32,000 nt of DNA from the NCBI RefSeq assembly GCF_022836845.1, contig NZ_JAJNNZ010000002.1, positions 15,033 to 47,032 of the forward strand, read 5' to 3'. The stretch comes from Vibrio gelatinilyticus (GTDB taxonomy: Bacteria > Pseudomonadota > Gammaproteobacteria > Enterobacterales > Vibrionaceae). Below are positions 5,736 to 21,434 of this stretch, in pieces (position 1 is the stretch's first letter; every line of letters starts with the position of its first letter). The notes beneath the pieces were generated by a model that did not search any database, was not told where the DNA came from, and worked only from the letters and a program-made list of their open reading frames with translations. The translations under genes and the position numbers were made by a program.

Positions 5736-7031
5736 ATGAAATATGGAATTAACTTTACCAAACGCTCGCTGGAGCAACTTGAACCTTCGGAAAAACGGAA
5801 AAGATATAGTGATTTCGGAGGAATAAGTAGTGTTCGTGGTCTGGGAATCGATATCTCCCCTTCTGGCGATAAAACATTCCGTTATGTTCAAAAAGTCAAT
5901 GGTCGAAACGTCAAGGTAACCATTGGCAAATTCCCTGAGATCACCGTAGAAGTGGCCCGTCATCAAGCCAAGGAAATCGCTCAACAGATCGCATGTGGTA
6001 TTAACCCTAACGTAGAAAAACGCAACAGACGCAATGCAGATACCTTCAATGACCTCTTTGCGGTATACGAAGAAATGTTTAAGCTCGATATCAAAGCAGG
6101 TAAACGGCGTGAACGCAGCTTAAAGGGCAACCAAACGCTCTATAATCTTCACCTGAAACCTGCTATCGGTCATCTTTCTACCGAGGAATATACCAAAAGC
6201 GACGCCAAGCAATTACTAAACCGTATCCTATCTCAAAAAGGTTATAGCTTACACAATCACGCACTCACCCTATTGAAGTCGATGTATAACCGTGCGGACA
6301 TAGATTCTAACCCCTTTAGTACGTTAAAAAAAGTTGATGAGTCTTATCACCGACGAGAGCGAACACTCTCCCCTGATGAGCTGCAACGCTTTTTCGAGTC
6401 TATCGACCAAGAGGAAGACATCTATCGAGATTGCATCTTGCTGTTACTGCTAACTGGTCAACGAAAAGCAACGGTACTGTCCATGGAGTGGCGGGAGATA
6501 AATCGAGCTAATCAAACCTGGACTATTCCAACCTCAAAGTTTAAGAGTAAAAAACCCCATGTCGTCCCATTGTCGGGTGAGGCGATGGCAATTCTTGAAA
6601 AGCGATCTAAGCAAGCCGCTTCAGGCGAGGAATTTGTTTTCCCAAGCAAGCGCAGTCAGTCTGGTCACATCACCGACAAGAGTGGCAAAGGCGGCTTCTG
6701 GAGGCGGGTCACAGAACGAGCTGAGTTATATAGCACCGATTCGTCCAAAAACCTTCAGGTACACGATTTAAGGCGCACACTGGCAACTTACCAAGTTACT
6801 TCTGGTGGCTCACTGCAAGCCACCAGCAAGCTGCTAGGGCACTCAAGCGTGAGCATCACCGCGGATGTTTATGCCCACTTGTCGGTTGATAATGTTCGAC
6901 AAGAGCTGGAAAGCACCACCAAGTTTATGCTGGGGCGCAGCACGCCAAGTCCGCTAGAACAAATCAAAGCACAGATACTCAGCTTGTCAGATGAAGACAA
7001 GGAAGAGCTTAGAACGTTTTTATGCGGCTAA
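5736..7031 (+). CDS. int: Tyrosine recombinase, P4-type integrase (N-terminal DUF4102/arm-binding domain plus catalytic domain)
   Basis: The N-terminus reads GLGIDISPSGDKTFRYVQKVNGRNVKVTIGKFPEITVEVARHQA. The catalytic residues sit in LLLTGQRKATV (R), HDLRRTLAT (HxxR) and LLGHSSVSITADVYAHL (H, Y). Confidence 0.92.
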   Translation: MKYGINFTKRSLEQLEPSEKRKRYSDFGGISSVRGLGIDISPSGDKTFRYVQKVNGRNVKVTIGKFPEITVEVARHQAKEIAQQIACGINPNVEKRNRRNADTFNDLFAVYEEMFKLDIKAGKRRERSLKGNQTLYNLHLKPAIGHLSTEEYTKSDAKQLLNRILSQKGYSLHNHALTLLKSMYNRADIDSNPFSTLKKVDESYHRRERTLSPDELQRFFESIDQEEDIYRDCILLLLLTGQRKATVLSMEWREINRANQTWTIPTSKFKSKKPHVVPLSGEAMAILEKRSKQAASGEEFVFPSKRSQSGHITDKSGKGGFWRRVTERAELYSTDSSKNLQVHDLRRTLATYQVTSGGSLQATSKLLGHSSVSITADVYAHLSVDNVRQELESTTKFMLGRSTPSPLEQIKAQILSLSDEDKEELRTFLCG

Positions 7032-7166
7032 ATTTTCAAGGCTGGCAACGTGTTACATACCCCATGTCATTACATACCCCAACCAGCACGGATCTGGACA
7101 ACTATTAGTTAGGGTAAAAATCTTAGCGCTTTAAGTCTGACCTTAGAAAATAGAATACCTACCAAC

Positions 7167-7880
7167 TCACAGTACATAATTACTCATATCAATTGATACT
7201 AAGATAGCAGTAAAGTTATCACGGGCCTCAGTAGCTAAAACTGCAGCTTTTAATGACTCGGCTTGCTCTGTTGTGGAAGGTTGCTCAAGAGCTTGAGCAA
7301 TTTGCCTGTCACTGAGCATATCACTCACCCCATCAGTGCACAGCAGCAATACCCCAGAGTGAAATGGATAAAATGTCGCACTGCTTGGCTTTAATGGTTT
7401 TTTCATTCCTAAGCCTTGGGTAATTAAGTTGCGTTGGGGGTGGGTCGATGCTTCCTCTTCGGTCAAGATGCCTCTGTGGATTAAATCTTGTACAAAAGAA
7501 TGATCGTCACTTAAACGTATCAGCTTTCCATCGGCGAACCAATACAGGCGTGAGTCTCCCACCCAAGTGAACTCAACTGCGTTACCCACCACTTGCACGG
7601 CCAGTATGGTACTGCCCATACCTTCGCATTCTGGGTTTGCATTGGCATGATTCAAAATAGCTTGATGGCAATAGTGCGCTCTTTGTTCAATCGGTTGATG
7701 TTCAAGTAAGGCTTGTTGGTAGTTTTTTACCGCTATATCACTCGCTACCTCTCCACTGTTATGGCCACCCATACCATCTGCTATGACATAACTTTGGTTC
7801 ACCTCATCAAGCAAGTAAGCATCTTCATTGTGTTGATATACATGCCCAACGTCTGAAAAAGCAACAACATCAACCAGCAT
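7167..7880 (-). CDS. PP2C-family Ser/Thr protein phosphatase
   Basis: Motifs ADGMGGHNSGEVAS, GSTILAV, VGDSRLY, LLLCTDGVSD and DNFTAIL. The start codon overlaps the Hsp70-like stop by 1 nt (TAATG). Confidence 0.9.
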   Translation of the reverse strand: MLVDVVAFSDVGHVYQHNEDAYLLDEVNQSYVIADGMGGHNSGEVASDIAVKNYQQALLEHQPIEQRAHYCHQAILNHANANPECEGMGSTILAVQVVGNAVEFTWVGDSRLYWFADGKLIRLSDDHSFVQDLIHRGILTEEEASTHPQRNLITQGLGMKKPLKPSSATFYPFHSGVLLLCTDGVSDMLSDRQIAQALEQPSTTEQAESLKAAVLATEARDNFTAILVSIDMSNYVL

Positions 7881-9385
7881 TAAACATTGACCTCAATTTG
7901 CTCCAACCATTGTTGTTCTTGCAGCAGTTGCGCATTGAGAGCCAAAGATTCTTCCCCTAATACATGCTCTATGACTTTTTGGGTAGCTGGGTCTTTGGCA
8001 CTAATGGTTACCAAACCTTCTAAGTCATAACCCAGCGTTACTTCTATGCCATGATGTTTCTTCGGATTTTCAATTAAAAAACTGCTCACACCTAAGCTAA
8101 TCGGCTCTTCATCATCGCGTTGTTGTACTACCTCTAACACCATGCGAGTTTGATCATCACGATTGGTATAGAAAGTATGGCTCGCCAAAGCAGGCACTGG
8201 GCTGTTTTGAGCGATGAGAACTTTGACTTTAGGTTTACCATCACTACCAATCGCACGGAAACCAAGGTTGTATGAACATACACCTTGCAACGTTTTACTT
8301 TTCGTTGGTGACGTTACAAACATTTGCTCAGCCAGCAAGGCCGCGCCATAGGCCACCGCTTGGTGGGGTTGGCGACACACTAAGTCATTTGGCGAGCGCC
8401 CAGCGGCTTTTGCCACTTTATCCTTTACCAAAGGCAACAGCGATGACCCGCCCGTTAATAGCAAGGTATCAATAAATGACCAATCCATCCCCGCAGCTTG
8501 CAAGCAGTGCTCGCACACTTGCAATGTTTGTTCGACAAACTCTTCGAGCAGTTGATTAAACTTATCTTGAGTAAGGATGAAGTCTAGAGTTTGCCCAGCG
8601 ATGACCAAGGTTTTTGATAGATGGCTTTTACCTGGTTTTGAAAGTTTTACTTTGACCTCTTGAGCGTAACGGCGCAGCTTGGTTTGATTGGCAGCGTCCA
8701 ATTTACATTGACCATAACGACGCTCAAACTCATCCATGACATAAGCAATGATGATATCGTCGATATGCTTGCCACCGTGGGTATTGCTGCCTTGTGTGGC
8801 TAGCGCATATAAACCTTGCTCTCCGACTTGCAAAACCGTGGCATCAAAAGTGCCTCCGCCTAAATCGTAAACAAAATAGGTGTTATCACCTTGCTGCTGA
8901 TAGCCATAAAAGGTAGCTGCGGCCACGGGCTCTTCCACTAACTTAACGTGCTTTAATCCGGCCAACTTAGCGGCCTCTTTGGTGGCTTTTCTTTGACCAT
9001 CCGTAAAGTTGGCGGGTACGGCAATCAACGCACCTTCAATCAACTCAGGGGTTGCCGCTTGCACGTCTTTTAAAAGTTTCTTGAGCACCAGCGCCGATAG
9101 CCCCTGCGGCGACCAATCACGCCCTAACTCGTCGTGATAAACAACTTGAGATTGCCCTAATGCCAGCTTAAAAAAGCGTGCTTGGGTAAGCTCTGGCTCA
9201 TCATCGAGTAACTCTTCAAGCGCGCTGCCTACCAGCACTCCGTTTTCACTTATGTATACACATGATGGCGTACGATATTCATCCACTTCGTGACAGTCAT
9301 GAAAAAGAGCGGGTATACCCTGTGGGTTCAAATACGATACCAGCGAAAAGGTGGTACCTAAATCTATACCTATGTACATCATCAT
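7880..9385 (-). CDS. Hsp70-family ATPase (DnaK/HscC-like) with nucleotide-binding domain and beta substrate-binding domain but no helical lid
   Basis: Motifs GIDLGTTFS (phosphate 1), YDLGGGTFD (phosphate 2) and LLLTGGSSLLP (adenosine). The C-terminal part resembles SBD-beta (YNLGFRAIG...VLIAQNSPVP...FYT..DDQTRMVLEVVQ...IEVTLGYDLEGLVTISAKD). At 501 aa it is too short to include a lid. Confidence 0.88.
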   Translation of the reverse strand: MMMYIGIDLGTTFSLVSYLNPQGIPALFHDCHEVDEYRTPSCVYISENGVLVGSALEELLDDEPELTQARFFKLALGQSQVVYHDELGRDWSPQGLSALVLKKLLKDVQAATPELIEGALIAVPANFTDGQRKATKEAAKLAGLKHVKLVEEPVAAATFYGYQQQGDNTYFVYDLGGGTFDATVLQVGEQGLYALATQGSNTHGGKHIDDIIIAYVMDEFERRYGQCKLDAANQTKLRRYAQEVKVKLSKPGKSHLSKTLVIAGQTLDFILTQDKFNQLLEEFVEQTLQVCEHCLQAAGMDWSFIDTLLLTGGSSLLPLVKDKVAKAAGRSPNDLVCRQPHQAVAYGAALLAEQMFVTSPTKSKTLQGVCSYNLGFRAIGSDGKPKVKVLIAQNSPVPALASHTFYTNRDDQTRMVLEVVQQRDDEEPISLGVSSFLIENPKKHHGIEVTLGYDLEGLVTISAKDPATQKVIEHVLGEESLALNAQLLQEQQWLEQIEVNV

Positions 9386-9464
9386 CCTTTTATCTCTTGT
9401 CTAAAGAGAGATGTATTGAAATCTAAATTGAAGCGCAACAAAGGTGTCAGCCCGGAATTATTGA

Positions 9465-12311
9465 TTAGCTCTTGAGCGCTTTACTACTTTGGCACAATTG
9501 CGAAATCTCTTTGACCATAGATTTGAGAGAGCGCTCCAAGTTAGTGCTATTTATTTCTATTGCGCCTGACTTAGACATAGAATCAACCCTATCATTAGAA
9601 CCCCAGATATTCATTGCTTTACTTGAAAAGTCAAAGCGATGCTCATACTCCTCATCATAACGCCAAGTGTTTACCCAGCTATATTCGGTATAAAAACTGC
9701 CATTACGATCCATGCGAAGATCACTACTGAGCTTATAAGTATGTTTCTCATATTCGACATATATAATGCACGGTCGACTAGCGGAGTATGAAACATCAAA
9801 GTCAGCTTTTAGCTTTCTGCGATGGGTTTCACTTGAATAAGAGGTATCCGTACTGTTTTCAAGCTTTGATTTTAAGCTCTTCATTAGCTTAACAACCTTT
9901 TCCATGTTGCTCTTATATTGCTTTTCCTGTTCAGCTTTTTTACGAGCTGCTTCTTCTTTGGCTTTTTTCAACCTAGCAGCCTTAGCCCATTTACTTTTGA
10001 TTTGAGCAATTTCAGCGTCATAACCGCCAAGTAAATCTCGAAAACTTTGCGAAGCTTGGCTATAGCTTTGCTTGGCATCTGAATATAACCCTTGCTTAGC
10101 TAAGCCTTGCCCTCTAGTTTGCAGGGCCTTGGCCTCTGTTTGTTTTGGTGATTGCAATGAGTATTTTTTGATTGCGGCCAACAATGCCGCTTGAGATTTT
10201 TGGGCGTTTATTTTTTCTGCGCTAATCAGTTGTGCTTGCTCTAATTCCTGCACCAGTAGTAGCTTGCTTTCAATAAACGCCTTGTTTGCTTCGGTAAACT
10301 GGCCTTCACTGCTTACTTTCAAGGCTAATTGGTAGGCGGATAGCCCTTGTTTTGCCTGCTCTGAATAGCCATAGCCCTGCTCAGTTAAATAGGCTTCAAG
10401 CTTAGTTTTCGCGTTTGTAGTTTGGATTTTTAGAGCATCGACCTCTTTGACTTGCATCAGTGCCTGCACCAGTAGTGGCTCACTTTCAGTAAATGCGTTG
10501 CTTGCTTGGGTAAACTGGCCTTCACTTCGCGCTTGACGAGCATTGTGATAAACCATTAACGCTTGCTTCACCGCCTCCGATTGACCATAACCTTGTTCAG
10601 AGAGGTAAGACTCAAGAGCGATTTTCGCCTTGGTGGCTTTAGTCTGGCTAACATACAGGGATTTACCGGCACCGAACTCTCGCCAAAGGTTTTGATAGCC
10701 CGTCTTAACTTCTTCAAGCAGCACTAACGCCTGAGCACTCTGCTGTTCATTGAGGTTTTGATTGCGAAGCAAGGTTTGCGCTTGAGCCAGTTTGCCTTCC
10801 AGCTCAGGGATGAGATTGCCATCAACCAAGTAATCTTTCGTCAAGCGTTCGGCAAGTCGAAGCGGTTCAAGGTTGTTACTGTTATTACGCTCGGCATCGC
10901 GTAAATCTGAAGTTAAATCACGCACGCCATTATCGAAGCGGCGAGCGATGGTTTTGATTTCCCCTTGCAGCCTACCTGCTTGCGCTTGATGCTCGGCAAT
11001 GAGGGCTTTATCGACTGGAGTTAAATCGGCAATAATGCTATCGAGCCAACCTTGCTGATAAGCAAAGCCAGTGCCAGCCAAAAGTGCAATGGAGAGCGCA
11101 ACAGGGACAAACTTGTTGCTGGTATGACTGCTGCTCTTGCTTATCTGAGTGATTTGGGCTTTAGCAGGCTTAGCCGTGCTAGTTAGAGCTTGATTGAAAG
11201 TCGTGATGTCAGCAAAGCGTTGGTCTGGCTTGTTCGATAACGCTTGGTCTACGGCATCGGATAGCCCTTGAGGCACATCTGCTCTTACTTCGCATAAACT
11301 TTCAATTCGACCTGTTGGCACTTCACCTGTCAGCATTTCATATAAAAGGACCGCTAAAGCGTATTGATCGGCACGACCATCAATCGTTCCCATTCCTTTG
11401 AGTTGCTCGGGTGCCATATAATAAGCAGTGCCTGTAGCGGCGCCTGTTTGGGTGCGCTGGGTGTTGCTGAGCACGCGAGCAATGCCAAAGTCCATTAGCT
11501 TTACGCTGCCATCTTCACATAAGAAGATGTTCTCTGGCTTAATATCACGATGCACTGTGTGCTGGTGAGCGTACTCAAGGGCATCGCAAAGTTTGTTGAT
11601 GATGTCTAAGGCATCATCGACTTCCATTTGCTGGTTGAGTTGCTGCTGATTGCTGAGCAAAGCACGCAGCTCTTGTCCTTCGAGCAGCTCCATGGTTAAG
11701 AATAGGTGCTCACCGTCTTGCTGAACATCGAAGACGTTAATGACGTTCGGGTGAGACAAATTGCTCGACAACTTGGCCTCGTCCATAAAACGCTGCTTAG
11801 CACGCTCACTTTGCGATAAATGCGGCAACACCATTTTAATCGCTATAGCTTGTTCCTTCACTTCATCAAAAGCAGCATAAACCACACCCATTCCGCCATG
11901 GCCGAGCACTTCGGTAATGCGGTAACGGTTAGCTAGCTTATGACCGATGGGTAAGGCTGTCACTTGACTTGCTGTCATCAAAGAACCAGTATCAAAATCG
12001 GTTCCAGATAGCGGCATATCCGCCATCATGGTTTGGCTCAGTGATGAACTAGCCGAAGGGGTCGATTGCGTCGTCTCTGGCTGGTTGTTAGCCTCATTAG
12101 CTAACTCAGTTAATAACCATTGAGCAACCTGCTCTAGGTCTACTTTTGATTGTCGAAACTTGTCCGCTAATGCTGGTGTGGGTGCTGAACTGATTTTATC
12201 ATCCAACAACCGATGCTTTTCCACTAACGCTTTTTTAATCGCAGCTTCTGGCTGACTGGCTAACGCTTCATCCGTTAGCCCAAGCTTTTGCTTTGCTTGA
12301 TTGATATCCAT
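9465..12311 (-). CDS. Receptor-type Hanks Ser/Thr kinase paralog 1. Order: J-like N-domain, kinase, one TM helix, helical repeats, unknown about 150-aa C-terminal domain
   Basis: Kinase motifs GHGGMGVVYAAFD, AIAIK, HRDIKPENIF, DFGIA and YYMAPE. One hydrophobic helix, FVPVALSIALLAGTGFAY, lies at about aa 401-417. There are two about 60-aa repeats (YL(S/T)EQGYG.SE..KQ.L..Y......SEGQFT.A..AF.ES..LLVQ). There is no FGE domain and no TR match. Confidence 0.9.
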   Translation of the reverse strand: MDINQAKQKLGLTDEALASQPEAAIKKALVEKHRLLDDKISSAPTPALADKFRQSKVDLEQVAQWLLTELANEANNQPETTQSTPSASSSLSQTMMADMPLSGTDFDTGSLMTASQVTALPIGHKLANRYRITEVLGHGGMGVVYAAFDEVKEQAIAIKMVLPHLSQSERAKQRFMDEAKLSSNLSHPNVINVFDVQQDGEHLFLTMELLEGQELRALLSNQQQLNQQMEVDDALDIINKLCDALEYAHQHTVHRDIKPENIFLCEDGSVKLMDFGIARVLSNTQRTQTGAATGTAYYMAPEQLKGMGTIDGRADQYALAVLLYEMLTGEVPTGRIESLCEVRADVPQGLSDAVDQALSNKPDQRFADITTFNQALTSTAKPAKAQITQISKSSSHTSNKFVPVALSIALLAGTGFAYQQGWLDSIIADLTPVDKALIAEHQAQAGRLQGEIKTIARRFDNGVRDLTSDLRDAERNNSNNLEPLRLAERLTKDYLVDGNLIPELEGKLAQAQTLLRNQNLNEQQSAQALVLLEEVKTGYQNLWREFGAGKSLYVSQTKATKAKIALESYLSEQGYGQSEAVKQALMVYHNARQARSEGQFTQASNAFTESEPLLVQALMQVKEVDALKIQTTNAKTKLEAYLTEQGYGYSEQAKQGLSAYQLALKVSSEGQFTEANKAFIESKLLLVQELEQAQLISAEKINAQKSQAALLAAIKKYSLQSPKQTEAKALQTRGQGLAKQGLYSDAKQSYSQASQSFRDLLGGYDAEIAQIKSKWAKAARLKKAKEEAARKKAEQEKQYKSNMEKVVKLMKSLKSKLENSTDTSYSSETHRRKLKADFDVSYSASRPCIIYVEYEKHTYKLSSDLRMDRNGSFYTEYSWVNTWRYDEEYEHRFDFSSKAMNIWGSNDRVDSMSKSGAIEINSTNLERSLKSMVKEISQLCQSSKALKS

Positions 12312-12334
12312 ATTGGGTTGCCTGATTCTCTATT

Positions 12335-14188
12335 TTAGGATGCTTGTAACTGGTTGATCAGGTTTTCTACCTGACGTTGCAATTGATTAAGTGGTTGCGT
12401 CTGCATCTGCAGTTGGCGAAGTTGCTGTTCAACAACCGCAATACGCTGGTTGGCTTGTTTGGCCTCAAACTGTTGCTGCTGGCGTTTTTCTTCTACGTGG
12501 GTTTTGTGCTGACTCTCTAGCTCGCTGAGCCAATGACGTTTTTGCTGATCTAAAAAGCGGTTGATTTGATTCACTTTCAAACGGTTTGTTTCAGAGACCA
12601 ATCGCTTAGCGATGTTATTCACTTCTCCACGAACTTTATGCAGCTCTTTTTCCATTCTTGCGGCTTCTTCTTTTGGAAAAGAAATGTAAGAGTAAATCAC
12701 ACCAGCAAAAAATAGTGGCAAGCCGAGCAACATAAGCACCGAACGAAGATTAGGGCTAAGCGCCCCCAACACCATACCGACAAACATCAAGCCCATCATC
12801 GCTTGGCGACCAGCGCCTAATCGCGCCAAAAAACCTTGGTGCGGCAACTCACCTTGATAACGAATTTCTAGCCCCAGCACTTCTTGTAGCTCTTGTTGAA
12901 GGCGAGATTTAGAAAACGTGTGTGACGATAATTGATACTGCTCAGTTTGTGGGTGGTTCTTGACTAACGTAGTGATATTCGCCAAACCTTGTTCAAGTGT
13001 TAACACATCTTGAATCAAAAACTGGTCACTTTGCTGTTTGATCACTGCTAACAATTGCTTCTGATAGTCTTCACTTAAGCTGAGTTTTATGATTTTGTGC
13101 TGCTTTTGTTGGTCAAGTCCATCAACATCCAACTTTTCAATAAATGCCGCTAAGTTAACAGCGTTAGTTGCATTGGGCGTTTCGCGCTTACGGCTCAGTT
13201 CCGCTAGATTCTTACTTAGCTCATTAAACTCATCATTAATGCGCTGTTTTAACGTGCTATCAAGCATGATGGATTCGGCATTTCCATGGCCAGTACGATC
13301 CGTTTGGCGACTTTCACGTTTTTTACGATTGGTGAGCTTTTTCGCTTGCTGCTCAAATTCATCATTTAACGCATCAACCCCTTGAAGCAGAGCATTACTT
13401 TGACTTAGTAAGTTCAGTTTTTGACGAAGTGGGTCATTTGAGTTGGTGAGAATCTCTGGGATTGAAGTTTCCACCGCTTCGGTTAATAACTGTTCTGGCA
13501 AGCGTATTGGGCAACGAAAACGGTTGAACCAGCCATTGTCGGGTAGCTGTAACCCTTTGGTGAGATCAGGCACATGGATTAGTGGCCAAAAGCCTTGCAT
13601 TTGAGCCGTCAATTGCTCCAACTCTCTCGCATCTTCTTCGGTTAGCTCAGCTTCTGCTTCCCCCGCAATGGCTAGAACGTTACTGTTCATCAGCACCCGA
13701 GTTAATGCCGCTGGGTAGGTTTTTAGGGTGGTGATAGTATCGGGGATATAAATCGTTAGGTTTTGTAGGCCTTTTTCGCTTGGCACATCCAACTTGAGGC
13801 TTTGAGGCGTATCTCCAAAAGAGAGCCCTTCACCCAGCACCTTTTCTAAACTTGTCCAATCATCAAACTCTTGACGCGTGCCGTTCTGCTCTAGGCTGTA
13901 ACCTTGTTTTTTAAGCGTAATTTCTAGTAAACCGATCGCTTTTTCGTGATTAATGGCGAAAACACTATATTCTTGCCCATAGAGCCAGTTAATAGCCGCA
14001 TTTCGGGCAGTACCGGATAGCCCGATTAGGGTGAGGTGGAAATCCTGACTTTGGGACTGAGTAGCAAGGTGTTGAAACTTCTCGCTAAGCGGTGTTTGTG
14101 CTTGACCAAGCTCTAAAGCTTGACTGATATCTACCGCCTGTTGACTAGATGTACTGAACTGTTGGCGCAGCAGTGCCAAATTTTCCAT
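12335..14188 (-). CDS. 617-aa membrane protein: N-terminal dynamin/GTPase-like domain with degenerate P-loop, coiled coils and a central TM hairpin
   Basis: RBS AAGGATAGGA. LTLIGLSGTARNAAINWLYG looks like the dynamin-type xxVxGxxxxGKSTLINALLG but has A-R-N where G-K-S would be. IYIPDT resembles G3 DxxG. Two adjacent hydrophobic helices (MMGLMFVGMVLGAL...VLMLLGLPLFFAGVIYSYISF) are followed by a Q/E/R-rich coiled coil. The fold assignment is inference. Confidence 0.6.
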   Translation of the reverse strand: MENLALLRQQFSTSSQQAVDISQALELGQAQTPLSEKFQHLATQSQSQDFHLTLIGLSGTARNAAINWLYGQEYSVFAINHEKAIGLLEITLKKQGYSLEQNGTRQEFDDWTSLEKVLGEGLSFGDTPQSLKLDVPSEKGLQNLTIYIPDTITTLKTYPAALTRVLMNSNVLAIAGEAEAELTEEDARELEQLTAQMQGFWPLIHVPDLTKGLQLPDNGWFNRFRCPIRLPEQLLTEAVETSIPEILTNSNDPLRQKLNLLSQSNALLQGVDALNDEFEQQAKKLTNRKKRESRQTDRTGHGNAESIMLDSTLKQRINDEFNELSKNLAELSRKRETPNATNAVNLAAFIEKLDVDGLDQQKQHKIIKLSLSEDYQKQLLAVIKQQSDQFLIQDVLTLEQGLANITTLVKNHPQTEQYQLSSHTFSKSRLQQELQEVLGLEIRYQGELPHQGFLARLGAGRQAMMGLMFVGMVLGALSPNLRSVLMLLGLPLFFAGVIYSYISFPKEEAARMEKELHKVRGEVNNIAKRLVSETNRLKVNQINRFLDQQKRHWLSELESQHKTHVEEKRQQQQFEAKQANQRIAVVEQQLRQLQMQTQPLNQLQRQVENLINQLQAS

Positions 14189-14618
14189 GTAATTCCTATC
14201 CTTATAAACTTGCTGGGTGCAAATCTTTACTTTTTAGTTTTTTGACACAGCAAATCAGTAAATTGTGATAGACGTGAACCTTGAAACGTTGCTAACGTGT
14301 TAATCATCAATTATGGCTGCTTACATCTATTCTACTCATTAACATTCTTAATTCCAAGGTGTGATAAGAGGCCTACCTCCCCAGAAATCCTATATAAAAC
14401 GGGGACTGACTCGTTATTATTTAAAATCCATTCACTCATCAAATAGTATTGCAGCCACTCCATTCACACTAATGATAAATATCAAAGCAAATAGTACCTA
14501 ACAATTTCACAACAACAATAGTGGGAATGACAATGTTATAAATTCCGCTACACTAAGCAAATCAGGGAAGCTGCTTCGTAATAAATTATGGCAGCAGCGA
14601 TATACAAAATGTCATTGG
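14189..14618. promoter_or_regulatory. 430-bp AT-rich divergent promoter region between the 617-aa/kinase/Hsp70/PP2C operon and the Ala/Gln/Ser-rich gene
   Basis: Divergent gene starts sit at 14188 (-) and 14619 (+). The spacer is long, non-coding and AT-rich. I cannot call specific -35/-10 boxes with confidence. Confidence 0.45.
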
Positions 14619-16490
14619 ATGGAAACAAAGGTCACCATTATGCCTTCAAGTGAACTTAACGCTATGCGAACGAATCTAGAGCAGCAACTGGCCGAAGCCA
14701 GAGCTCAGGCTGAGAAAATACAACAACTGGCTCAAAACTCTGAGCTTGATAGACAGCGGGCACAAAATGAAGCTTCGCTGGCTCAGCAACAAAGTGAAGC
14801 GAGTCAGCAGTCTGCGAGCCAAGCTCAGCAGCAAGCACAAGCATCAACTCAAGCAAGCAGCCAGGCTCAAAAAGATGCCGACAATGCCAATCAAAACGCG
14901 AGTCAAACCCAACAGCATTCCGAACAAGCCGCTCAAGCGAGTCAATCTGCTCAGCAACACTTTAATACTGCAAACCAAGCGGCAAGCGATGCGCGAGAAC
15001 AAGCTGCGAATGCAGCAAGAGCCTCTGATAGCGCAAGCAGTGAGGCGGCAGAAGCACGCCAAGCATCTAGCCAAGCAAGCAGCGCAGCAAGTGAAGCACA
15101 AACTGAAGCTCGTACGGCGCAAAGCGCCGCTAGTGATGCTCAATCAGAGCTGACTGCTGCAACCACAGCGGCCGCGATGGCTGGGCGAGCTGCAAGTGAA
15201 ACGAGCCAGTCACAATCGCAAGCAGCGCAAGCCGCTAGTGAAACGGAGCAAGCTCAATCTTCCGCGCAAAATGCACAATCGCAAGCAGAAAACGCGAGCC
15301 AAGGAGCACAAAGCGCTCAATCACAAGCCGAAGGAGCAAATCAACACGCTCAAGCGGCTCAATCTGATGCACAAACTGCGTCGCAACAAGCGCAACAATT
15401 CCAATCCTCCGCAGATTTGGCCAGCCAAAGTGCGCAATCCGCGCAACAACAAAGTCAGCAAGCGAGTCAAGCCAGTGCACAGGCTCAAACTCAAAGCGAA
15501 ACCGCGAAAGACGCATCCTTAATGGCACAAAGTCAAACAGAGCAAGCACAACAACAGGCGGCGCAAGCCAGCGCTGAAGCTCAAGATGCACAAAATGAAG
15601 CAGAAACCGCCAAGGACGATACGTTGACTGCTCAAACAGCGGCCCAAGCGGCCAGCGAAGCCACCAGTGCTGCACAAGCTTCAGCGCAGGCCGCAGCGCA
15701 AGGTGCGGCTGAACAGCAGCAACAGGCGCAAACTGCCAACGAAAAAGCCACCGAGTTTGCTGAGAAAAGCAATCAAGCCGCTCAGCAAGCATCCAGCGAC
15801 CAAAGCACTGCTGCGAACGCAGCCTCACAAGCACAAAATTTTGCAGGCAATGCGGAATCGGCACAGTCCACAGCACAAACAGCGTCAAGTTCAGCGCAAT
15901 CGGCTAACAATGAGGCGCAAAGTGCACAAAGCCAAGCACAAACTGCCGCCAGTCAAATTGAAGCTGAACTGAGTAAAGCCGCAGAAAGTGCTTCTTTAGC
16001 AGATAATGAAGCAGAGCAAGCCAGTAGCGCGCTGCACAGTATTCAACACCTTAGGAATGAAGCGTCTCAAGCAAATGCTGTTGCAATGCAAGCAAAAGCC
16101 GATGCCCTTGCAGCCAAAGAAGAGGCTGAACAATTATTGGCTCAAGCACGAGATGCTGCCAACCAATTAGTGGGTGTTTTGGAACAGATGAGAAGCCAAG
16201 GCGAAGCCGCGGTGCAAGATGCACTGCAACACGCAGCCAAAGCTGAGAGTTATATGACAAACGCAGGTGAGCATATGATTCAAGCCGGTAACCACTGCAC
16301 TCAAACTCGAATGTTTATGGAGGCGGCCGGCGAAGCCAAAGGCGAAACGGAAAGCTGTAAGGATGATGCCATTAGCCTGAAAGTCAGCATTGAGGGCAGC
16401 GTATCAGACGCAAAAAGCTCTGCCTCGAATGCTGAGCAAAGTGCCCGTGATGCCGCCGAGGCTGCGTCTCGAGCTGAGCGATTTGCTTAA
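14619..16490 (+). CDS. 623-aa low-complexity Ala/Gln/Ser(/Glu/Thr/Asn)-rich protein, predicted helical or disordered, with no signal peptide or TM
   Basis: A long ORF with a good terminator after it. The repetitive AQ/SQ/AS composition runs from about aa 45 to 470. The last about 150 aa are more ordinary and contain two Cys. An alternative start is the ATG at 14640 (MPSSELN) with AAGG upstream. Other frames are open only because of the compositional bias. Confidence 0.7.
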   Translation: METKVTIMPSSELNAMRTNLEQQLAEARAQAEKIQQLAQNSELDRQRAQNEASLAQQQSEASQQSASQAQQQAQASTQASSQAQKDADNANQNASQTQQHSEQAAQASQSAQQHFNTANQAASDAREQAANAARASDSASSEAAEARQASSQASSAASEAQTEARTAQSAASDAQSELTAATTAAAMAGRAASETSQSQSQAAQAASETEQAQSSAQNAQSQAENASQGAQSAQSQAEGANQHAQAAQSDAQTASQQAQQFQSSADLASQSAQSAQQQSQQASQASAQAQTQSETAKDASLMAQSQTEQAQQQAAQASAEAQDAQNEAETAKDDTLTAQTAAQAASEATSAAQASAQAAAQGAAEQQQQAQTANEKATEFAEKSNQAAQQASSDQSTAANAASQAQNFAGNAESAQSTAQTASSSAQSANNEAQSAQSQAQTAASQIEAELSKAAESASLADNEAEQASSALHSIQHLRNEASQANAVAMQAKADALAAKEEAEQLLAQARDAANQLVGVLEQMRSQGEAAVQDALQHAAKAESYMTNAGEHMIQAGNHCTQTRMFMEAAGEAKGETESCKDDAISLKVSIEGSVSDAKSSASNAEQSARDAAEAASRAERFA

Positions 16491-16512
16491 GATTTAACTT
16501 TCCCTAATAGTG

Positions 16513-16540
16513 AAGCGCCATATGTGGCGCTTTATTTTTA
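16513..16540 (+). terminator. Rho-independent terminator between the convergent Ala/Gln/Ser-rich gene and the DGR RT
   Basis: AAGCGCCA-TATG-TGGCGCTT hairpin followed by TATTTTT. Confidence 0.75.
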
Positions 16541-16590
16541 CCCTCTGGAATTACCGCTGATGCTGTATGACAACTCAAAAAGCCTTTCGA

Positions 16591-17592
16591 TTATTGGGCT
16601 GACACAGCCCAATTCAAGGGAGAAATTATCGCCCTTCTCAAACCAACACTTTCACCATGAACAGCATGACCAATCCACGCCATCATCGACGCCTTGACGA
16701 AATCAAGAGGCAGCTTGCCTTGTATATAGCGCCGATGTTTTTGACGATACTTTCGCGCAAAACGATAGCCATTATCATTGCGCACCCAGCGACGCGTCGA
16801 ACTTACTTTATAGCCCAGCATATCGACTTTTTGTACTGTTCTTAGCAGGCTTTGCTTGCGAGGATGCAACACTAACCCAATTGCAACAAGTTCAGATTCA
16901 ATGACGTTTTGAATTGCCCACAATTGCGATTTACAGTTAGACATAATAGTTAAGTCATCAACGTAACGCAGATAAGCAGGTGATTGGCTTGCTACCTTGT
17001 GGTCTAGCTCATTAAGAAATAAATTAGCAAAACACTGACTGGTTAAATTACCCATTGGCAACCCGACCAACTGCTGAGGAGACTTTAATAGTTCTCGAAT
17101 CAAAAAAAGCAACGGCTTGTCTTTAATAACACGCTTGATTTTATCAAATAGTATTTTGTTATTTATACTGGCGAAAAAGGAACGTATATCGAGTTTCAGC
17201 ACATATCGATACTTTCGTGCCCATACCTGATAAACATTGACAGCCAAATGCGCCCCCTTACCTTTGCGGCAGGCGTAACTGTGATGATAGAACCGAGCCT
17301 CAAAGATAGGCTCCAGTACATTCATGATGGCATGGTGTAGTACCCTATCTCGGAACGGTGCCGCGCTAATCTCTCTTGGTTTTCTATCGAAAATAATAAA
17401 CTTTCGATAACCGCCAAACCGATAGCTGCCTGAGCGAAGCTCTGCTTGCATGGCAAATAGCTCCGCCTCTAACTGGTAACTAAATTGGGCCACTTTCACT
17501 TGATTGCGTTTGCCCTTAGCTGCCTTTTTATAGGCTAAATACAAATTTGAAAAGCTAGTGACTTTATCCCAAAGATTACCCAGTCTTTTCAT
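16591..17592 (-). CDS. DGR-type reverse transcriptase
   Basis: 333 aa. Motifs LDIRSFFASI, LPMGNLTSQCFANLFLNELD (the DGR-typical SQ in motif 4) and LRYVDDLTIM (YxDD). RBS GGGGTGAAGG. It lies directly downstream of the TR and avd. Confidence 0.92.
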   Translation of the reverse strand: MKRLGNLWDKVTSFSNLYLAYKKAAKGKRNQVKVAQFSYQLEAELFAMQAELRSGSYRFGGYRKFIIFDRKPREISAAPFRDRVLHHAIMNVLEPIFEARFYHHSYACRKGKGAHLAVNVYQVWARKYRYVLKLDIRSFFASINNKILFDKIKRVIKDKPLLFLIRELLKSPQQLVGLPMGNLTSQCFANLFLNELDHKVASQSPAYLRYVDDLTIMSNCKSQLWAIQNVIESELVAIGLVLHPRKQSLLRTVQKVDMLGYKVSSTRRWVRNDNGYRFARKYRQKHRRYIQGKLPLDFVKASMMAWIGHAVHGESVGLRRAIISPLNWAVSAQ

Positions 17593-17750
17593 AAGCCTTC
17601 ACCCCTTTTGGTCCCTACTCGATTTGAAGGCGCTATCCATAGCGTAACTATTCAAAATAATTTCCTTATTATTTTAAGATAAGCATTCATGGGCACATCA
17701 TTTACACGCTGCGTAACCCTTGAGTTACCGCACTCTGGCAGTGATGCGAA

Positions 17751-17860
17751 CTGGACTAAACGAAAGCCATTATTGTTGTTGCGATTGCCAAGCGAATTGT
17801 TGTTGCGATTGGCTGAGCGCAGATTTCTCGGATTATTGTTCCAAGACCCGCCGCGAAGCA
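17751..17860 (-). repeat. DGR template repeat (TR)
   Basis: 93 of 110 positions are identical to the VR at 18342-18451. In the target frame it reads LRGGSW NNN P R N LRSA N R NNN SLG N R NNNN GFRLVQ, rich in AAC/AAT codons. It starts 36 nt after the avd stop and ends 158 nt before the RT start. Confidence 0.93.
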
Positions 17861-17895
17861 GACTTTCGATAGATGCTTACCTTTTTGTCCATAAT

Positions 17896-18255
17896 TTAAT
17901 TCTGTGACGCCCCCTTTCGCCAGCCTCCGACTTGATTGCCAATATCCACCACATATTGGCTGCCCGTTTCATAGCTTTTGATATTAATGACCTTTAGCTC
18001 AAAGCTAAGGCGCCATAAGTGGCGCAATAGGTTTAAATTCCGATTAGCCTTATCTAACCATTGCAACTTATGCCTGGTCGTTGCATACCCTGCCTCAACT
18101 AAGCAAGAGAGCAGTGCTAAGGCGCAACGTTCTATTTTTTCACCTAGGCTAAAGCGTCTATTCTTAGGGAACTGATCGAGCTTTGGTATTAGCCATATTA
18201 GATACTGGTGGCAGTTCTCCACCACAGCAATGCTGCCTGGCTTGTTCATTGTCAT
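17896..18255 (-). CDS. avd: Accessory variability determinant (Avd), four-helix-bundle / 23S rRNA-IVS protein family
   Basis: 119 aa. The sequence HQYLIWLIPKLDQFPKNRRFSLGEKIERCALALLSCLVEA is typical of the four-helix-bundle family. It occupies the canonical position between the target gene and the TR. Confidence 0.8.
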   Translation of the reverse strand: MTMNKPGSIAVVENCHQYLIWLIPKLDQFPKNRRFSLGEKIERCALALLSCLVEAGYATTRHKLQWLDKANRNLNLLRHLWRLSFELKVINIKSYETGSQYVVDIGNQVGGWRKGASQN

Positions 18256-18266
18256 CGTTACCTACG

Positions 18267-18307
18267 CCCTTTTCTTGGCTAATATCAGATTAAAACCAAG
18301 AAAAGGG
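18267..18307. promoter_or_regulatory. 12-bp perfect inverted repeat (CCCTTTTCTTGG, 17-nt spacer, CCAAGAAAAGGG) just 3' of the VR and target stop
   Basis: Read directly from the sequence. It lies 26 nt downstream of the stop at 18333. On the minus strand no U-run follows it; the avd RBS and ATG come next. Confidence 0.6.
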
Positions 18308-18332
18308 AAAAAGAAAAAAGTGTAAAGGGAAA

Positions 18333-21227
18333 TTATTGGCCCTGGACTAAACGAAAGCCAAAACTGTTGAAGCGAATGCCAAGCGAATAGTAGCTGCGAG
18401 GGGCTGAGCGCAGATAACTCGGAACACTGTACCAAGACCCGCCGCGAAGCACCCGTCTTTCACACTCGCCTGACTTCCAAGCGTTGCCGTTTCCGGGTGC
18501 GCCATGGTAGTTGTCATTCCAGCAATCTTGCGTCCATTCCCATACATTACCATGCATGTCATAGAGGCCAAAGCGGTTGGCTGAGAAGCTTTTTACGGGT
18601 GCGGTTTTGCTGTCATCCCAACGACTGCCACAGCCATCACAGTTGGCTCGATTACTACCAATGCTATTGCCCCAGCTGTATTTGCTTTGGCTCCCTGCGC
18701 GGGCAGCATATTCCCACTGCGCCTCACTCGGCAGGCTAAACTTAAGACCAGTCGTTTTATTCAGCCATGGAATAAACTGCTGGGTAATGTCTTTATAGCT
18801 GACGTTGATGACAGGGCGGCTGCCACGCCCCCAGTTTTGGTCATCTGGTCTATGCGAGCAGCCACCAGCGGCCACGCAAGCATCCCACTGGGCAAAGGTG
18901 ACTTCGTGTTCCATCATCTTAAAACTTTTCAGCGTCACGCGATGTACAGGCTTTTCATCGTCAACTTGACTATCATTGGAGCCCATTCTAAAGCTACCAG
19001 CGGGGATGGTCACTAACTTACCAACCAAGCGAACTGCTTTTGCCGCCTTCTCTCGTGCCGCCTTCTCTCGTGCCGCCTTCTCTATCGCCGCTTTAGCCGC
19101 TTTAGCCGCTTTAGCCGCTTTAGCCCATTGTGCTTCAACATTGGCGATATCACCAGATAACCCATTAAGCAATTGTTGGTAGTGTTGCGCAGCTTGGCTA
19201 TAGCTTTGCTTGGCTTCTGAATATAAGCCTTGCTTGGCTAAGCTTTGCCCTTTAGTTTGCAGGGTATTGGCCTCAGTTTGTTCTGGTGATTGCAATGAGT
19301 ACTTTTTGATTGCGGCCAGCAATGCGGCTTGAGCTTCTTCTGCTTTTATTTTTTCTGCGCTAATCAGTTTTGTTTGCAACAGTGCCTGCACCAGTAGCGG
19401 TTCACTCTCAGAAAACACCTTGTTTGCTTGAGTAAAATGCCCTTCACTGCGTGCTTTCAAGGCTAATTGGTAGGCGGATAGCCCTTGTTTTACTTTTTCG
19501 GATTGACCATAGCCTTGTTTAGCTAGATAGGCTTCAAGCTGGGCTTTCGCGCTGGTCGCCTTAGTTTGGCTGGCATAAAGACTTTTGCTGGCATTAAATT
19601 CTTGCCATAAGTTTTGATAGCCAGCTTTAACTTCTTCAAGTAGCAATAGTGCTTGAGCACTTTGCTGTTCATTAAGGTTTTGAGTACGTAACAAAGTTTG
19701 TGCTTGCGCAAGCTTACCTTCCAGCTCTGGGATGAGATTGCCATCAACCAAGTAATCTTTCGTTAAGCGCTGGGCAAGTCGAAGCGGTTCAAGGTTGTTA
19801 CTGTTATTACGCTCGGCATCGCGCAAATCCGAGGTTAAGTCACGCACCCCGTTATCGAAGCGGCGAGCGATGGTTTTGATTTCCCCTTGCAGCCTACCTG
19901 CTTGCGCTTGATGCTCGGCAATGAGGGCTTTATCGACTGGAGTTAAATCGGCAATAATGCTATCGAGCCAACCTTGCTGATAAGCAAAGCCGCTCCCCGC
20001 CATCACGGCCAGAGAAAGCGCAATTGGCACCAGTTTGTTGCTGCCTTTTGGATAAGTTGTCGGTTGCGTTTTTAGATTGGAAGTATTCGATATATTGCTT
20101 TTGATACCTATGGTTGTAGCAAGGGCTAATTTGAGTTCAGCCGCGTCACTTGGCCTGTCTTCGGCTTTTGTCTCTAAAGCTTTGTCAACAGCATCTGACA
20201 AGCCTTGTGGTATTTGGTCATTCAGCTCGGTAAGCGACTTAAAACGCCCCGTTGGCACATCTCCTGACAGTAATTCATAAAGCATCACCCCGAGGGCATA
20301 AATATCTGCTCTCTGGTCAACTTTACTGGTGCCTTTGAGTTGTTCAGGTGCCATGTAATAGGCAGTCCCTGTTGCAGCGCCAGTTTGGGTGCGTTGGGTA
20401 TTGCTCATTACGCGCGCAATACCAAAATCCATCAACTTAACCTCACCTTCTTCATCAAGCCAGATATTCTCAGGTTTGATATCACGGTGAACCGTCTGTT
20501 TATGGGCGTAGCTTAGAGCGTCACATAAGGAATTGGCAATGTTCATTGCCTCATCTACATCAAAGGGCACATTAGCAGCTTGACGAGCTTCAATTAACGC
20601 TCGTAAGTCTTGGCCTTCAAGGAGCTCCATGGTGAGAAAAACTTGGTCACCTTGTTGCTGTACATCGAACACATTAACGATATTTGGATGCGATAACTGG
20701 CTTGAGAGCTTGGCTTCATCCATAAAACGAGATAACGCCTTAGGGTTATTCACCAAGTGTGGTAACAGCGTTTTAATCGCGATGCTCTGCTCTTTGATGT
20801 TATCAAATGCTTGGTAGACAACGCCCATTCCACCTTGACCGAGCACACCCTCAATACGATAACGCCCAGCCAGCTCATACCCAGCCCGTAAGGTATTGAC
20901 AGTGCCTTGCGATACCGAGCTAAACTGAGTGCCCGACAAGGGCATATCCGCCATCATGGTTTGGCTGATTGAAGGAGATTCTGTTGCTAAAGCTGATGGC
21001 TTGGCTGCATTGTCCGCCAAACTTGCTCTTAATACTCGAGCCGCTTTTTCAGCATCGTTGAGACGCTGTTGATACTTATCGACTAACGCTTTCGTCGGGG
21101 CGGTTTCAATTTTTTCACGCAGCATCATTTGCTGCTTGGTTAATGCTTCGTTGATTTCATCGTTGGAAAGGGGCGCGCTTTGGTCACTACCTAGGCTAAG
21201 GTATTGCCTGGCTTGGCTTAACTCCAT
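18333..21227 (-). CDS. DGR target: receptor-type Hanks Ser/Thr kinase paralog 2. Order: J-like N-domain, kinase, one TM helix, helical repeats, Ala/Lys linker, C-terminal FGE-sulfatase/C-type-lectin-fold domain carrying the VR
   Basis: Kinase motifs GQGGMGVVYQAFD, AIAIK, HRDIKPENIW, DFGIA and YYMAPE. The TM helix LVPIALSLAVMAGSGFAY lies at about aa 399-416. The FGE-type domain starts at about aa 736 (nt about 18336-19022): IPAGSFRMGS, PVHRV.L..F.M...EVT..QW, LPSEAQWEYAARAG, GLYDMHGNVWEWTQD and RVLRGGSW...RSA.R....GFRLV. Confidence 0.92.
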   Translation of the reverse strand: MELSQARQYLSLGSDQSAPLSNDEINEALTKQQMMLREKIETAPTKALVDKYQQRLNDAEKAARVLRASLADNAAKPSALATESPSISQTMMADMPLSGTQFSSVSQGTVNTLRAGYELAGRYRIEGVLGQGGMGVVYQAFDNIKEQSIAIKTLLPHLVNNPKALSRFMDEAKLSSQLSHPNIVNVFDVQQQGDQVFLTMELLEGQDLRALIEARQAANVPFDVDEAMNIANSLCDALSYAHKQTVHRDIKPENIWLDEEGEVKLMDFGIARVMSNTQRTQTGAATGTAYYMAPEQLKGTSKVDQRADIYALGVMLYELLSGDVPTGRFKSLTELNDQIPQGLSDAVDKALETKAEDRPSDAAELKLALATTIGIKSNISNTSNLKTQPTTYPKGSNKLVPIALSLAVMAGSGFAYQQGWLDSIIADLTPVDKALIAEHQAQAGRLQGEIKTIARRFDNGVRDLTSDLRDAERNNSNNLEPLRLAQRLTKDYLVDGNLIPELEGKLAQAQTLLRTQNLNEQQSAQALLLLEEVKAGYQNLWQEFNASKSLYASQTKATSAKAQLEAYLAKQGYGQSEKVKQGLSAYQLALKARSEGHFTQANKVFSESEPLLVQALLQTKLISAEKIKAEEAQAALLAAIKKYSLQSPEQTEANTLQTKGQSLAKQGLYSEAKQSYSQAAQHYQQLLNGLSGDIANVEAQWAKAAKAAKAAKAAIEKAAREKAAREKAAKAVRLVGKLVTIPAGSFRMGSNDSQVDDEKPVHRVTLKSFKMMEHEVTFAQWDACVAAGGCSHRPDDQNWGRGSRPVINVSYKDITQQFIPWLNKTTGLKFSLPSEAQWEYAARAGSQSKYSWGNSIGSNRANCDGCGSRWDDSKTAPVKSFSANRFGLYDMHGNVWEWTQDCWNDNYHGAPGNGNAWKSGECERRVLRGGSWYSVPSYLRSAPRSYYSLGIRFNSFGFRLVQGQ
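18342..18451 (-). repeat. DGR variable repeat (VR), codons about 926-962 of the target kinase
   Basis: There are 17 mismatches to the TR, all at template A positions on the coding strand. 13 codons are changed: N/R to Y, S, V, S, Y, P, S, Y, Y, I, F, S, F. Confidence 0.93.
19041..19122 (-). repeat. In-frame tandem repeats inside the kinase 2 linker: 15-bp unit in about 3 copies (19041-19085), then 9-bp unit GCCGCTTTA in 4 copies (19087-19122)
   Basis: Read directly from the sequence. The repeats encode AKAAKAAKAAKA and AAREKAAREKAA. Confidence 0.85.
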
Positions 21228-21434
21228 TGTATCCGTACTCTTTTACTGACTGTATTATCTATTATTTAACAATCTCATTCCCCCTCTTGCAATATCTAAT
21301 TTTCATAGATGTTGATTTATCATTCGATTGCGCCAAAGACAGAACCAATAACTCAATGGCCATGTAAATAACTGCTATATTTTTCACTCGGTAAGCTACA
21401 TAAGTCAGATTCAAATAATTACAACGGTATTAAC

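Follow-up and report, generated by a model that had tools for sequence, protein, structure and literature searches.

A block of genes at positions 7167–21227 of a 32,000-nucleotide (nt) stretch of Vibrio gelatinilyticus DNA (contig NZ_JAJNNZ010000002.1, positions 15,033 to 47,032; the whole stretch is called the window below) encodes a lid-less Hsp70 (Hsp70L), a PP2C phosphatase, two receptor Ser/Thr kinases, a dynamin-like membrane protein (M617) and a long protein rich in Ala, Gln and Ser (the A/Q/S protein), alongside a diversity-generating retroelement (DGR). We propose that the block belongs to a conserved, previously unannotated membrane-associated proteobacterial module, in which receptors with a J-like head would work through Hsp70L on a scaffold of pseudo-dynamin and rods, and we put the probability of this reading, mechanism included, at about 0.55. 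The existence of a real conserved module in which Hsp70L is coupled to its receptors seems to us highly probable. The specific mechanism as written out below ranges from rather doubtful, if all of it must hold, to slightly favoured, if less of it is demanded, and a role of the module in biological conflict is a tentative assignment that falls somewhat short of even chances.

Conservation of the Hsp70L neighbourhood

The core of the block is a minus-strand operon that is transcribed in the order M617 (12335–14188, 617 amino acids (aa)), kinase 1 (9465–12311, 948 aa), Hsp70L (7880–9385, 501 aa) and, as its last gene, PP2C (7167–7880, 237 aa). A 23-nt gap separates M617 from kinase 1 and a 79-nt gap kinase 1 from Hsp70L, and the start of the PP2C gene overlaps the stop of the Hsp70L gene by 1 nt. 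The A/Q/S gene (14619–16490, plus strand, 623 aa) diverges from the operon, and the DGR cassette lies downstream of it in convergent orientation. Both divergent promoters are presumed to lie in the intergenic region 14189–14618, in which a promoter scan gave weak consensus matches only. All of the gene coordinates and spacings claimed in an earlier note on this DNA were reproduced by calling of open reading frames (ORFs). Exact protein look-ups show that the proteins of V. gelatinilyticus ZSDZ34 carry no annotation beyond labels such as 'Hsp70 family protein' and 'hypothetical protein'.

Hsp70L (Pfam HSP70, 1e-77) is a specialised member of its family. It matches positions 97–493 of the 599 in the Pfam HSP70 profile, and since the match ends at position 493 the lid is taken to be missing. 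Its alignment to DnaK covers the β part of the substrate-binding domain (SBD-β) and stops near DnaK residue 509, where the helical lid would start, so that nucleotide-binding domain and SBD-β make up the protein, as the earlier note had described it. The motifs for phosphate 1, phosphate 2, connect and adenosine are all kept (GIDLGTT, DLGGGTFD, EEPVAAA and LTGGSS). The 120 closest relatives have 481–592 residues, nearly all of them about 500, and among close relatives the range is 498–512. We conclude that Hsp70L is, as judged from these alignments, an ATPase-competent Hsp70 without a lid. Its operon neighbour PP2C is a Ser/Thr phosphatase (Pfam PP2C_2, 1e-13; NCBIfam Stp1/IreP, 2.5e-60) in whose translation the DGMGGH and DG motifs can be read, and the two genes also adjoin each other in the related loci L004–L008, L015, L017, L021 and L022.

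The closest relative of the block is found in V. methylphosphonaticus (L003/L004), where an A/Q/S gene stands next to genes for M617, a kinase with an FGE domain, Hsp70L and PP2C, in that order, beside an integrase fragment. A genome scan with Hsp70L led to three Microbulbifer species, a Cellvibrionaceae metagenome-assembled genome and the betaproteobacterium Ca. Accumulibacter; kinases with the same N-terminal domain (the N-domain, described below) lie beside Hsp70L in all of these loci, PP2C in most, and M617 with one or two A/Q/S proteins in several. Six genome loci make up this evidence, and their hosts belong to Vibrio, Microbulbifer, Cellvibrionaceae and Ca. Accumulibacter. Four distant representatives of the M617 family were all found beside genes of the module, three next to an Hsp70 of about 500 aa and one next to an N-domain FGE protein, and a metagenome scan with an M617 profile of 14 sequences returned 29 further loci.

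M617 is the tightest partner of Hsp70L and is often translationally coupled to it. The two genes adjoin, or are one gene apart, in about 19 of the 24 informative loci, and 4-nt stop/start overlaps between them are seen in L010, L028, L029, L033, L034, L039 and L041, which suggests that their products form a stoichiometric pair. N-domain proteins occur in every locus of sufficient length, as kinases, as pseudokinase-like FGE proteins or as other receptors, and their sensor ends vary from locus to locus (FGE, Sel1 repeats, orphan domains). PP2C, rods of the A/Q/S type and receptors with the N-domain are found repeatedly in both Gammaproteobacteria and Betaproteobacteria. The usual make-up is an invariant Hsp70L with J-like receptors, mostly with M617 adjoining, usually with one or two rods, and with PP2C when the receptor is a Hanks kinase. 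The same families thus co-occur in dozens of unrelated loci, far above chance, and the multi-gene module postulated in the earlier note is found in genomes and metagenomes alike.

The pseudo-dynamin and the alanine-zipper rods

M617, for which the earlier note had suggested a degenerate GTPase, is more specifically dynamin-like. An AlphaFold2 model built from a 92-sequence alignment has a pLDDT of 89.9 (a previous run from 4 sequences, with a pLDDT of 60, was discarded), and the top matches of this model in a Foldseek search of the PDB all belong to the dynamin superfamily. The best of them is the bacterial dynamin-like protein BDLP (1e-11); others are the Campylobacter dynamin pair DynA/B, MxB, IniA, mitofusins and LeoA (4.7e-6), and a sequence profile search also matched IniA at 6e-4. 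The model comprises a dynamin/BDLP-like G-domain with a dead P-loop, a helical neck and trunk, a hairpin and a long C-terminal helix. Residues ∼453–505 are modelled as two helices, are hydrophobic in sequence and may form a membrane hairpin.

None of 125 aligned relatives of M617 has a GxxxxGK[ST] Walker A motif at the position of the P-loop, where the family consensus for the strand-loop-helix reads hhhhGLxxxARxxxLxWLxG. From the dynamin fold together with this absence of Walker A we conclude that M617 is, on the strength of the model, a membrane-anchored pseudo-dynamin, the GTP-binding motifs having been lost in every member examined. The family is large: an exhaustive profile search gave 390 cluster representatives at 50% identity, nearly all of 600–670 aa and matching end to end. 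Unlike bacterial dynamins that pair with a second dynamin, M617 has an Hsp70 as its partner gene. M617 has no match in Pfam, NCBIfam, PADLOC (E≤0.01) or PHROGs, and ten out of ten sampled relatives are unnamed or 'hypothetical'.

The A/Q/S protein has a composition of 28% Ala, 19% Gln and 14% Ser, and over ∼420 residues its alanines recur with a period of exactly 3.50 residues (spectral power 12.4, compared with ∼1 at other periods). With this period, Ala falls on positions a and d in about 60 heptads, which predicts a very long alanine-zipper rod. We conclude that the protein is, by its sequence pattern, a conserved heptad rod with short conserved segments at its N- and C-termini. Its orthologue in V. 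methylphosphonaticus is 94% identical, and A/Q/S-like genes are present in more than 12 loci (L006–L011, L021, L022, L025, L026, L036, L039 and L041). The tails of the proteins from the window and from L006–L011 are Ala/Ser-rich and end in one to three hydrophobic residues (...RAERFA, ...SAANSI, ...SAESFI), and larger paralogues of ∼820 aa have a conserved globular N-terminus.

Receptor kinases, the J-like head and the retroelement

Kinase 1 (Pfam Pkinase, 7e-48) and kinase 2 (18333–21227, minus strand, 964 aa; Pkinase 1e-50, FGE-sulfatase 1e-55) are 62% identical over ∼690 residues and are indeed paralogues, as the earlier note had it. In both translations the Gly-loop and the AIK, HRD, DFG and APE motifs are intact, and both proteins have a single transmembrane helix followed by periplasmic helical repeats. 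Kinase 1 consists of a J-like N-domain (residues 1–70), the LSQTMMADMPLSGTDF motif, a Hanks kinase domain, the transmembrane helix, the helical repeats and an orphan C-terminus; kinase 2 has the same order, with an LSQT motif and with an FGE/C-type-lectin sensor at its end. The C-terminal 168 residues of kinase 1 (9468–9971), a domain of ∼170 aa, take the place of the FGE sensor in the V. methylphosphonaticus orthologue. None of the fetched loci encodes a relative of this domain, and the DNA that follows kinase 1 was searched for a remnant of FGE without success.

The N-domain, of about 70 residues, is conserved and helical, with the pattern L-G-L...EI..A......L......A-P-T..L..K-Y...L..L. A trimmed alignment of 12 N-domain sequences was compared with the J-domain by hhalign, and the two align over 61 columns that span helices I–III, with a score of 25.6, P ∼1e-4 and a probability of 40–57%. 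In 150 column-shuffled controls the mean score was 9.0 (sd 1.9, maximum 16.9), so that none reached 25.6, and the reversed control scored 10.4. The Pfam DnaJ model matches three of 14 N-domain members, weakly (E ∼1e-3). All 14 carry an A[PA][TSN] motif before the third helix, and hhalign places the HPD motif of the J-domain a few residues upstream of it. Other searches gave less: a PDB profile search with the N-domain returned nothing convincing, its profile did not match E. coli DjlC, and a word-index search with it returned two short hypothetical proteins only. We consider it moderately supported that the N-domain is J-like and HPD-less; to that extent the J-like character claimed in the earlier note is borne out, and the HPD of a true J-domain is absent.

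Two further features of these receptors were noted. Nearly all relatives (including L005–L010 and L017) carry, after the J-like head and ahead of the kinase domain, a conserved linear motif, [LI]SQT[KM][ML]AD[LM]Px[SA]xTQF, which occupies residues 90–106 of kinase 1 (∼11994–12044) and 86–102 of kinase 2 (∼20922–20972); it might serve as a client peptide for Hsp70 or as a phosphosite. In Thalassotalea crassostreae (L015, 13261–18847) there are two tandem kinases with duplicated J-like heads, which have AATPAL in place of APTxAL and are the most DnaJ-like of all in sequence (FKILSV...EQEIVNAYR).

The periplasmic juxtamembrane segments of kinases 1 and 2 (residues ∼412–530) are nearly identical as protein, and the best nucleotide alignment that covers them has 84% identity. 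Recent gene conversion of this segment was considered and is ruled out by a nucleotide identity of just 84%. Near-identity of the protein at this level of nucleotide divergence speaks for strong purifying selection, and hints that the segment may be conserved for a common partner or for heterodimerisation of the two kinases.

The DGR is canonical in its cassette order of target, avd, template repeat (TR) and reverse transcriptase (RT), all on the minus strand. The RT gene (16591–17592, 333 aa; Pfam RVT_1, 4e-26) encodes visible YVDD and GNLTSQ motifs, and the accessory protein Avd (17896–18255, 119 aa) matches NCBIfam DivGenRetAVD above its cut-off (2.5e-24) and Pfam bAvd (1e-15). The TR (17751–17860) and the variable repeat (VR, 18342–18451) form a 110-nt pair of 85% identity in which all 17 mismatches fall at TR adenines of the coding strand. 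The VR makes up the last ∼37 codons of kinase 2, in its FGE/C-type-lectin domain. By these signatures the DGR is intact, and the periplasmic FGE sensor of kinase 2 is predicted to be hypermutable.

It could be argued that the island is a mosaic on which a DGR, with its kinase-lectin target, has simply come to lie beside an Hsp70/kinase operon to which it is neither related nor functionally coupled. The five-gene module of V. methylphosphonaticus, which has neither RT nor Avd, is compatible with such a fortuitous juxtaposition, as is the lack of a DGR in most related loci. Against it, kinase 2 is the paralogue of kinase 1 and shares with it the J-like head, the LSQT motif and the near-identical juxtamembrane protein segment, from all of which we take kinase 2 to belong to the module; the in-operon kinase of V. 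methylphosphonaticus itself bears an FGE domain; and in two unrelated metagenomic loci, L026 and L036, FGE-targeting DGRs flank the module. Each of these two has its own RT and Avd, one TR and two adenine-specific VRs, which lie in separately encoded, signal-anchored FGE proteins. We consider chance association very unlikely. The coupling to a DGR claimed in the earlier note is therefore borne out here and at these two loci, and linkage of module and DGR is recurrent but not universal.

FGE fragments in L001 (2769–3014) and L003 (15301–15465), downstream of kinase-FGE genes, were considered as TRs and rejected. The mismatches of the L001 fragment are not adenine-specific, and no nucleotide repeat was detected in L003/L004; these fragments appear to be decayed duplicates.

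Proposed mechanism, known systems and the island

From the gene content, folds, motif integrity, co-occurrence and DGR signature that are observed here, we infer who binds whom, the direction of signalling, its output and its biological role. A ligand would bind the periplasmic sensor and the kinase would be activated. The J-like head, the LSQTxxADxPxSxTQF peptide, or both, would then engage Hsp70L, which, driven by ATP, would assemble or disassemble a pseudo-dynamin/rod scaffold at the inner membrane. This scaffold would be the output, either through remodelling or permeabilisation of the membrane or through release of a bound factor, and PP2C would reset the phospho-state. In V. gelatinilyticus two paralogous receptor kinases would feed the module, and the DGR would continually rewrite the FGE sensor of kinase 2. 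The chaperone-gated phospho-switch suggested in the earlier note, and a role in defence, are likewise conjectural. The most likely role, and a plausible one, would be to recognise foreign ligands, variable ones of the surface or periplasm, that come from phages or competitors. A conflict role is favoured by the satellite-like island described below, by integrases in both Vibrio genomes, by the patchy distribution of the module, by its multiplied variable sensors and by the DGRs.

Several observations weigh against the reading proposed here. No HPD motif is present in any of the 14 N-domain sequences. Canonical J-domains need this motif to stimulate Hsp70, and with its absence canonical J-domain function cannot be assumed for the J-like head. 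A first profile test of the N-domain against the J-domain, with seven sequences and the linker included, was negative (probability 2.6%). The loci L005, L007, L015 (Thalassotalea) and L017 (Alcanivorax) have PP2C, Hsp70L and kinase, but neither a pseudo-dynamin gene nor a rod gene lies within 10 kb of them. It follows that the module can do without the scaffold, and that the invariant pair is Hsp70L with a J-like receptor; pseudo-dynamin and rods are a frequent second layer of the module. An ECF-sigma-like gene lies beside the module in L005, L006, L008 and L017, housekeeping genes are its neighbours in L015 and L017, and most related loci are without a DGR. PADLOC, run on the block, gave only generic kinase, RT and PP2C matches and left the core unrecognised, and tblastn with M617 found no match in phage and plasmid collections.

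Much of this would be expected of ordinary envelope or cell-surface signalling, in which the kinases and PP2C would regulate expression or envelope homeostasis (through an ECF-type sigma factor in other species), Hsp70L would be a dedicated receptor chaperone and the DGR would merely tune ligand specificity, as has been suggested for kinase-lectin DGR targets of cyanobacteria. The ECF-sigma-like gene is conserved by the module together with two partner genes, the core has no PADLOC matches, two loci have housekeeping flanks, and DGR-diversified proteins that join a Ser/Thr kinase to a C-type lectin (STK-CLec) have been interpreted as regulatory tuning (PMC7517822). Such a simple transcriptional pathway does not explain a dead dynamin or rods of 60 heptads, however, and the window contains no sigma factor. 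The module stands beside integrase genes in both Vibrio genomes, and here is the cargo of a satellite-like island bounded by attachment (att) repeats; its species distribution is patchy, its contexts differ, and its sensors are variable and multiplied (FGE, Sel1, orphan). We regard envelope signalling as possible but somewhat unlikely, and even so the Ser/Thr-kinase circuit would be a new one, partnered by an unusual chaperone.

The genes next to the module in the other species form a trio, whose products are an ECF-sigma-like protein (∼290 aa), its partner (∼280 aa) and a third protein (∼490 aa), in Microbulbifer, Cellvibrionaceae and Alcanivorax (L005 3063–6614, L008 5619–9161, L006 6449–7593, L017 17591–21285). 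It is absent from the window, and suggests a transcriptional output in those species.

The module proposed here was also compared with named systems, of which none had been recognised in the earlier note. TerY-P reportedly joins a TerY/vWA protein to a PP2C phosphatase and a Ser/Thr kinase (Gao et al. 2020), and dynamin-like proteins act in Eleos defence. The block shares the Hanks kinase and PP2C with TerY-P but has no TerY/vWA gene by Pfam or PADLOC, and Eleos (LeoA/LeoBC) is likewise without a PADLOC match, its LeoA resembling M617 merely at fold level (4.7e-6). The kinase domains match the PD-T4-6 hidden Markov models at 1e-74, over the generic Hanks kinase domain only; apart from this the architectures are unrelated, and the remaining components of the block have no counterpart there.

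The systems described by Kaur et al. 2020 (PMC7159879) offer a wider comparison. There, the DGR-linked systems are those of MoxR, vWA and VMAP, whereas the theme of kinase, PP2C and vWA belongs to an actinobacterial GAP1-N2 GTPase system; in some of the GTPase neighbourhoods HSP70/GrpE is present together with DnaJ-fused components, in others a kinase with PP2C and vWA. The DO-GTPases of that study are described as TRAFAC GTPases that are active, have a Walker B glutamate and often come as a paralogous pair, the systems are reported to be mainly actinobacterial, firmicute or cyanobacterial, and the word 'dynamin' does not occur in it. The block resembles these systems in its NTPase/chaperone core, its membrane association, its variable sensor or effector parts and the occasional DGR-diversified FGE. 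It differs in having no MoxR, vWA, GASH, FNIII or tubulin gene and, as far as gene sizes show, no GAP1 gene; M617 is of dynamin type, single, and inactive throughout its family, the Hsp70 is lid-less and the module is proteobacterial.

There is thus only a slim chance, in our judgement, that the block is a variant of TerY-P, of a VMAP/MoxR-vWA ternary system with a DGR, of a DO-GTPase/GAP1 system or of Eleos. A kinase-PP2C pair and a DGR-diversified FGE are common themes, the Kaur neighbourhoods do combine GTPases with Hsp70 or with kinase and phosphatase, and Eleos does use dynamin-like proteins. On the other side, Pfam found no vWA or MoxR/AAA+ domain in the ORFs of 5736–21866, that is, in the block or its immediate flanks, PADLOC gave no TerY, Eleos or dynamin match, M617 lacks the Walker A motif in contrast to the active DO-GTPases, and the loci contain no conserved extra gene of GAP1 size. 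The likeness to TerY-P and to a vWA-kinase-PP2C ternary system with a DGR, which the earlier note had drawn, is therefore a loose analogy. Its suggestion that the Hsp70 sits where the vWA protein would be does not describe positional homology, because the kinase-PP2C-vWA and DGR themes belong to different systems of Kaur et al. that had been merged.

Kinase 2 by itself is of a known kind. Its architecture, VR and cassette order are those of the DGR kinase-CLec targets (Wu et al. 2018, type b12, PMC5758913; Vallota-Eastman et al. 2020, PMC7517822; Dore et al. 2024, PMC10907252), but it is one input of a larger module, on a gammaproteobacterial satellite-like island. These three papers make no mention of a linked Hsp70 or phosphatase, in a search that did not extend to A/Q/S rods or a J-like head, and the DGR-target paper searched for the term does not mention dynamin. 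DGR-diversified kinase-lectin receptors are thus already known, whereas the Hsp70L/pseudo-dynamin/rod core and the J-like receptor head are undescribed; no description of a neighbourhood with Hsp70, a dynamin-like protein and kinase/PP2C was found in the literature searched.

Among known chaperones the closest analogue is HscC of E. coli, which is accompanied by membrane J-proteins and by Sel1 neighbours. Hsp70L is 30% identical to HscC, another specialised Hsp70, and the two have the unusual interdomain linker C[PS]Y[SN]LG in common, as well as membrane-anchored J or J-like neighbours and neighbours with Sel1 repeats. HscC, at 556 aa, is ∼55 aa longer than Hsp70L, and we take the extra length to be a short lid; its J-proteins DjlB and DjlC carry genuine J-domains with HPD. 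In the 14-kb stretch of E. coli that was examined, the annotation shows neither a kinase or PP2C nor a pseudo-dynamin, rod gene or DGR.

A eukaryotic parallel is given by auxilin/GAK-Hsc70-dynamin uncoating, in which a J-domain kinase, an Hsp70 and dynamin act at a membrane on a lattice protein. The parts list is alike, with rods in place of the lattice, but the analogy is functional only: M617 is the inactive counterpart of a dynamin, the J-like domain lies at the N-terminus and has no HPD, and homology is seen at the superfamily level only. By this analogy the block might encode a new kind of auxilin/GAK-like machine for surface immunity or signalling, in which receptor kinases with a J-like head would recruit the lid-less Hsp70, the Hsp70 would build or take down an inner-membrane lattice of pseudo-dynamin and 60-heptad rods, and DGRs would provide an antibody-like repertoire of periplasmic lectin sensors. 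It would then be the first effector system in bacteria to be driven by Hsp70 and the first to be based on a pseudo-dynamin. We think this version improbable.

Three of the core families, the pseudo-dynamin, the alanine-zipper rods and the J-like head, have no Pfam or NCBIfam model, and the pseudo-dynamin, the rods and the N-terminal region of the kinases have no PADLOC model and no mention in the literature searched. If the proposed mechanism is true, it would give a bacterial Hsp70 a new job, as a signalling or effector motor instead of a folding chaperone, and would provide the first function for a catalytically dead dynamin. There would also be a tractable Vibrio, open to cultivation, as a model for the diversification of a transmembrane kinase's outer sensor by a DGR, so that what the targets of cellular DGRs sense, a long-standing question, would become directly testable.

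The block is the cargo of an island of ∼22.4 kb that lies between two 26-nt exact direct repeats, an attL-type repeat at 5535–5560 and an attR-type repeat at 27941–27966, the latter overlapping the 3′ end of tRNA-Arg(TCT). At its left end, outside the module, the island carries a P4-type tyrosine integrase (5736–7031, plus strand; Pfam Phage_integrase 4e-25, Arm-DNA-bind_3 4e-14), and near its right end, at 24705–26467, a TerS-like gene (phrog_370, 1e-29) and a primase/helicase (AAA_25; phrog_2850, 5e-102). The mobile island of the earlier note is thereby confirmed, and the repeats, integrase, TerS-like gene and primase/helicase together make it look like a phage satellite, similar to the phage-inducible chromosomal islands, in which the module would be cargo beside the integrase. 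A nucleotide search of plasmids with the operon gave no match, and Rfam and promoter/terminator scans of the window returned nothing beyond the tRNA except weak consensus promoter matches.

Between kinase 2 and an integrase fragment inside the island, three ORFs of 143, 103 and 199 aa (21435–23309) have no Pfam or PHROG match; the 143- and 103-aa ORFs have none in NCBIfam either, and the 143-aa ORF none in PADLOC. They are followed, at 23676–24363, by an 89-aa ORF for a truncated tyrosine integrase and by a fragment of rve_3 (88 aa). A third copy of the att repeat was not found. The two fragments suggest that an earlier insertion has decayed here or that the island is composite.

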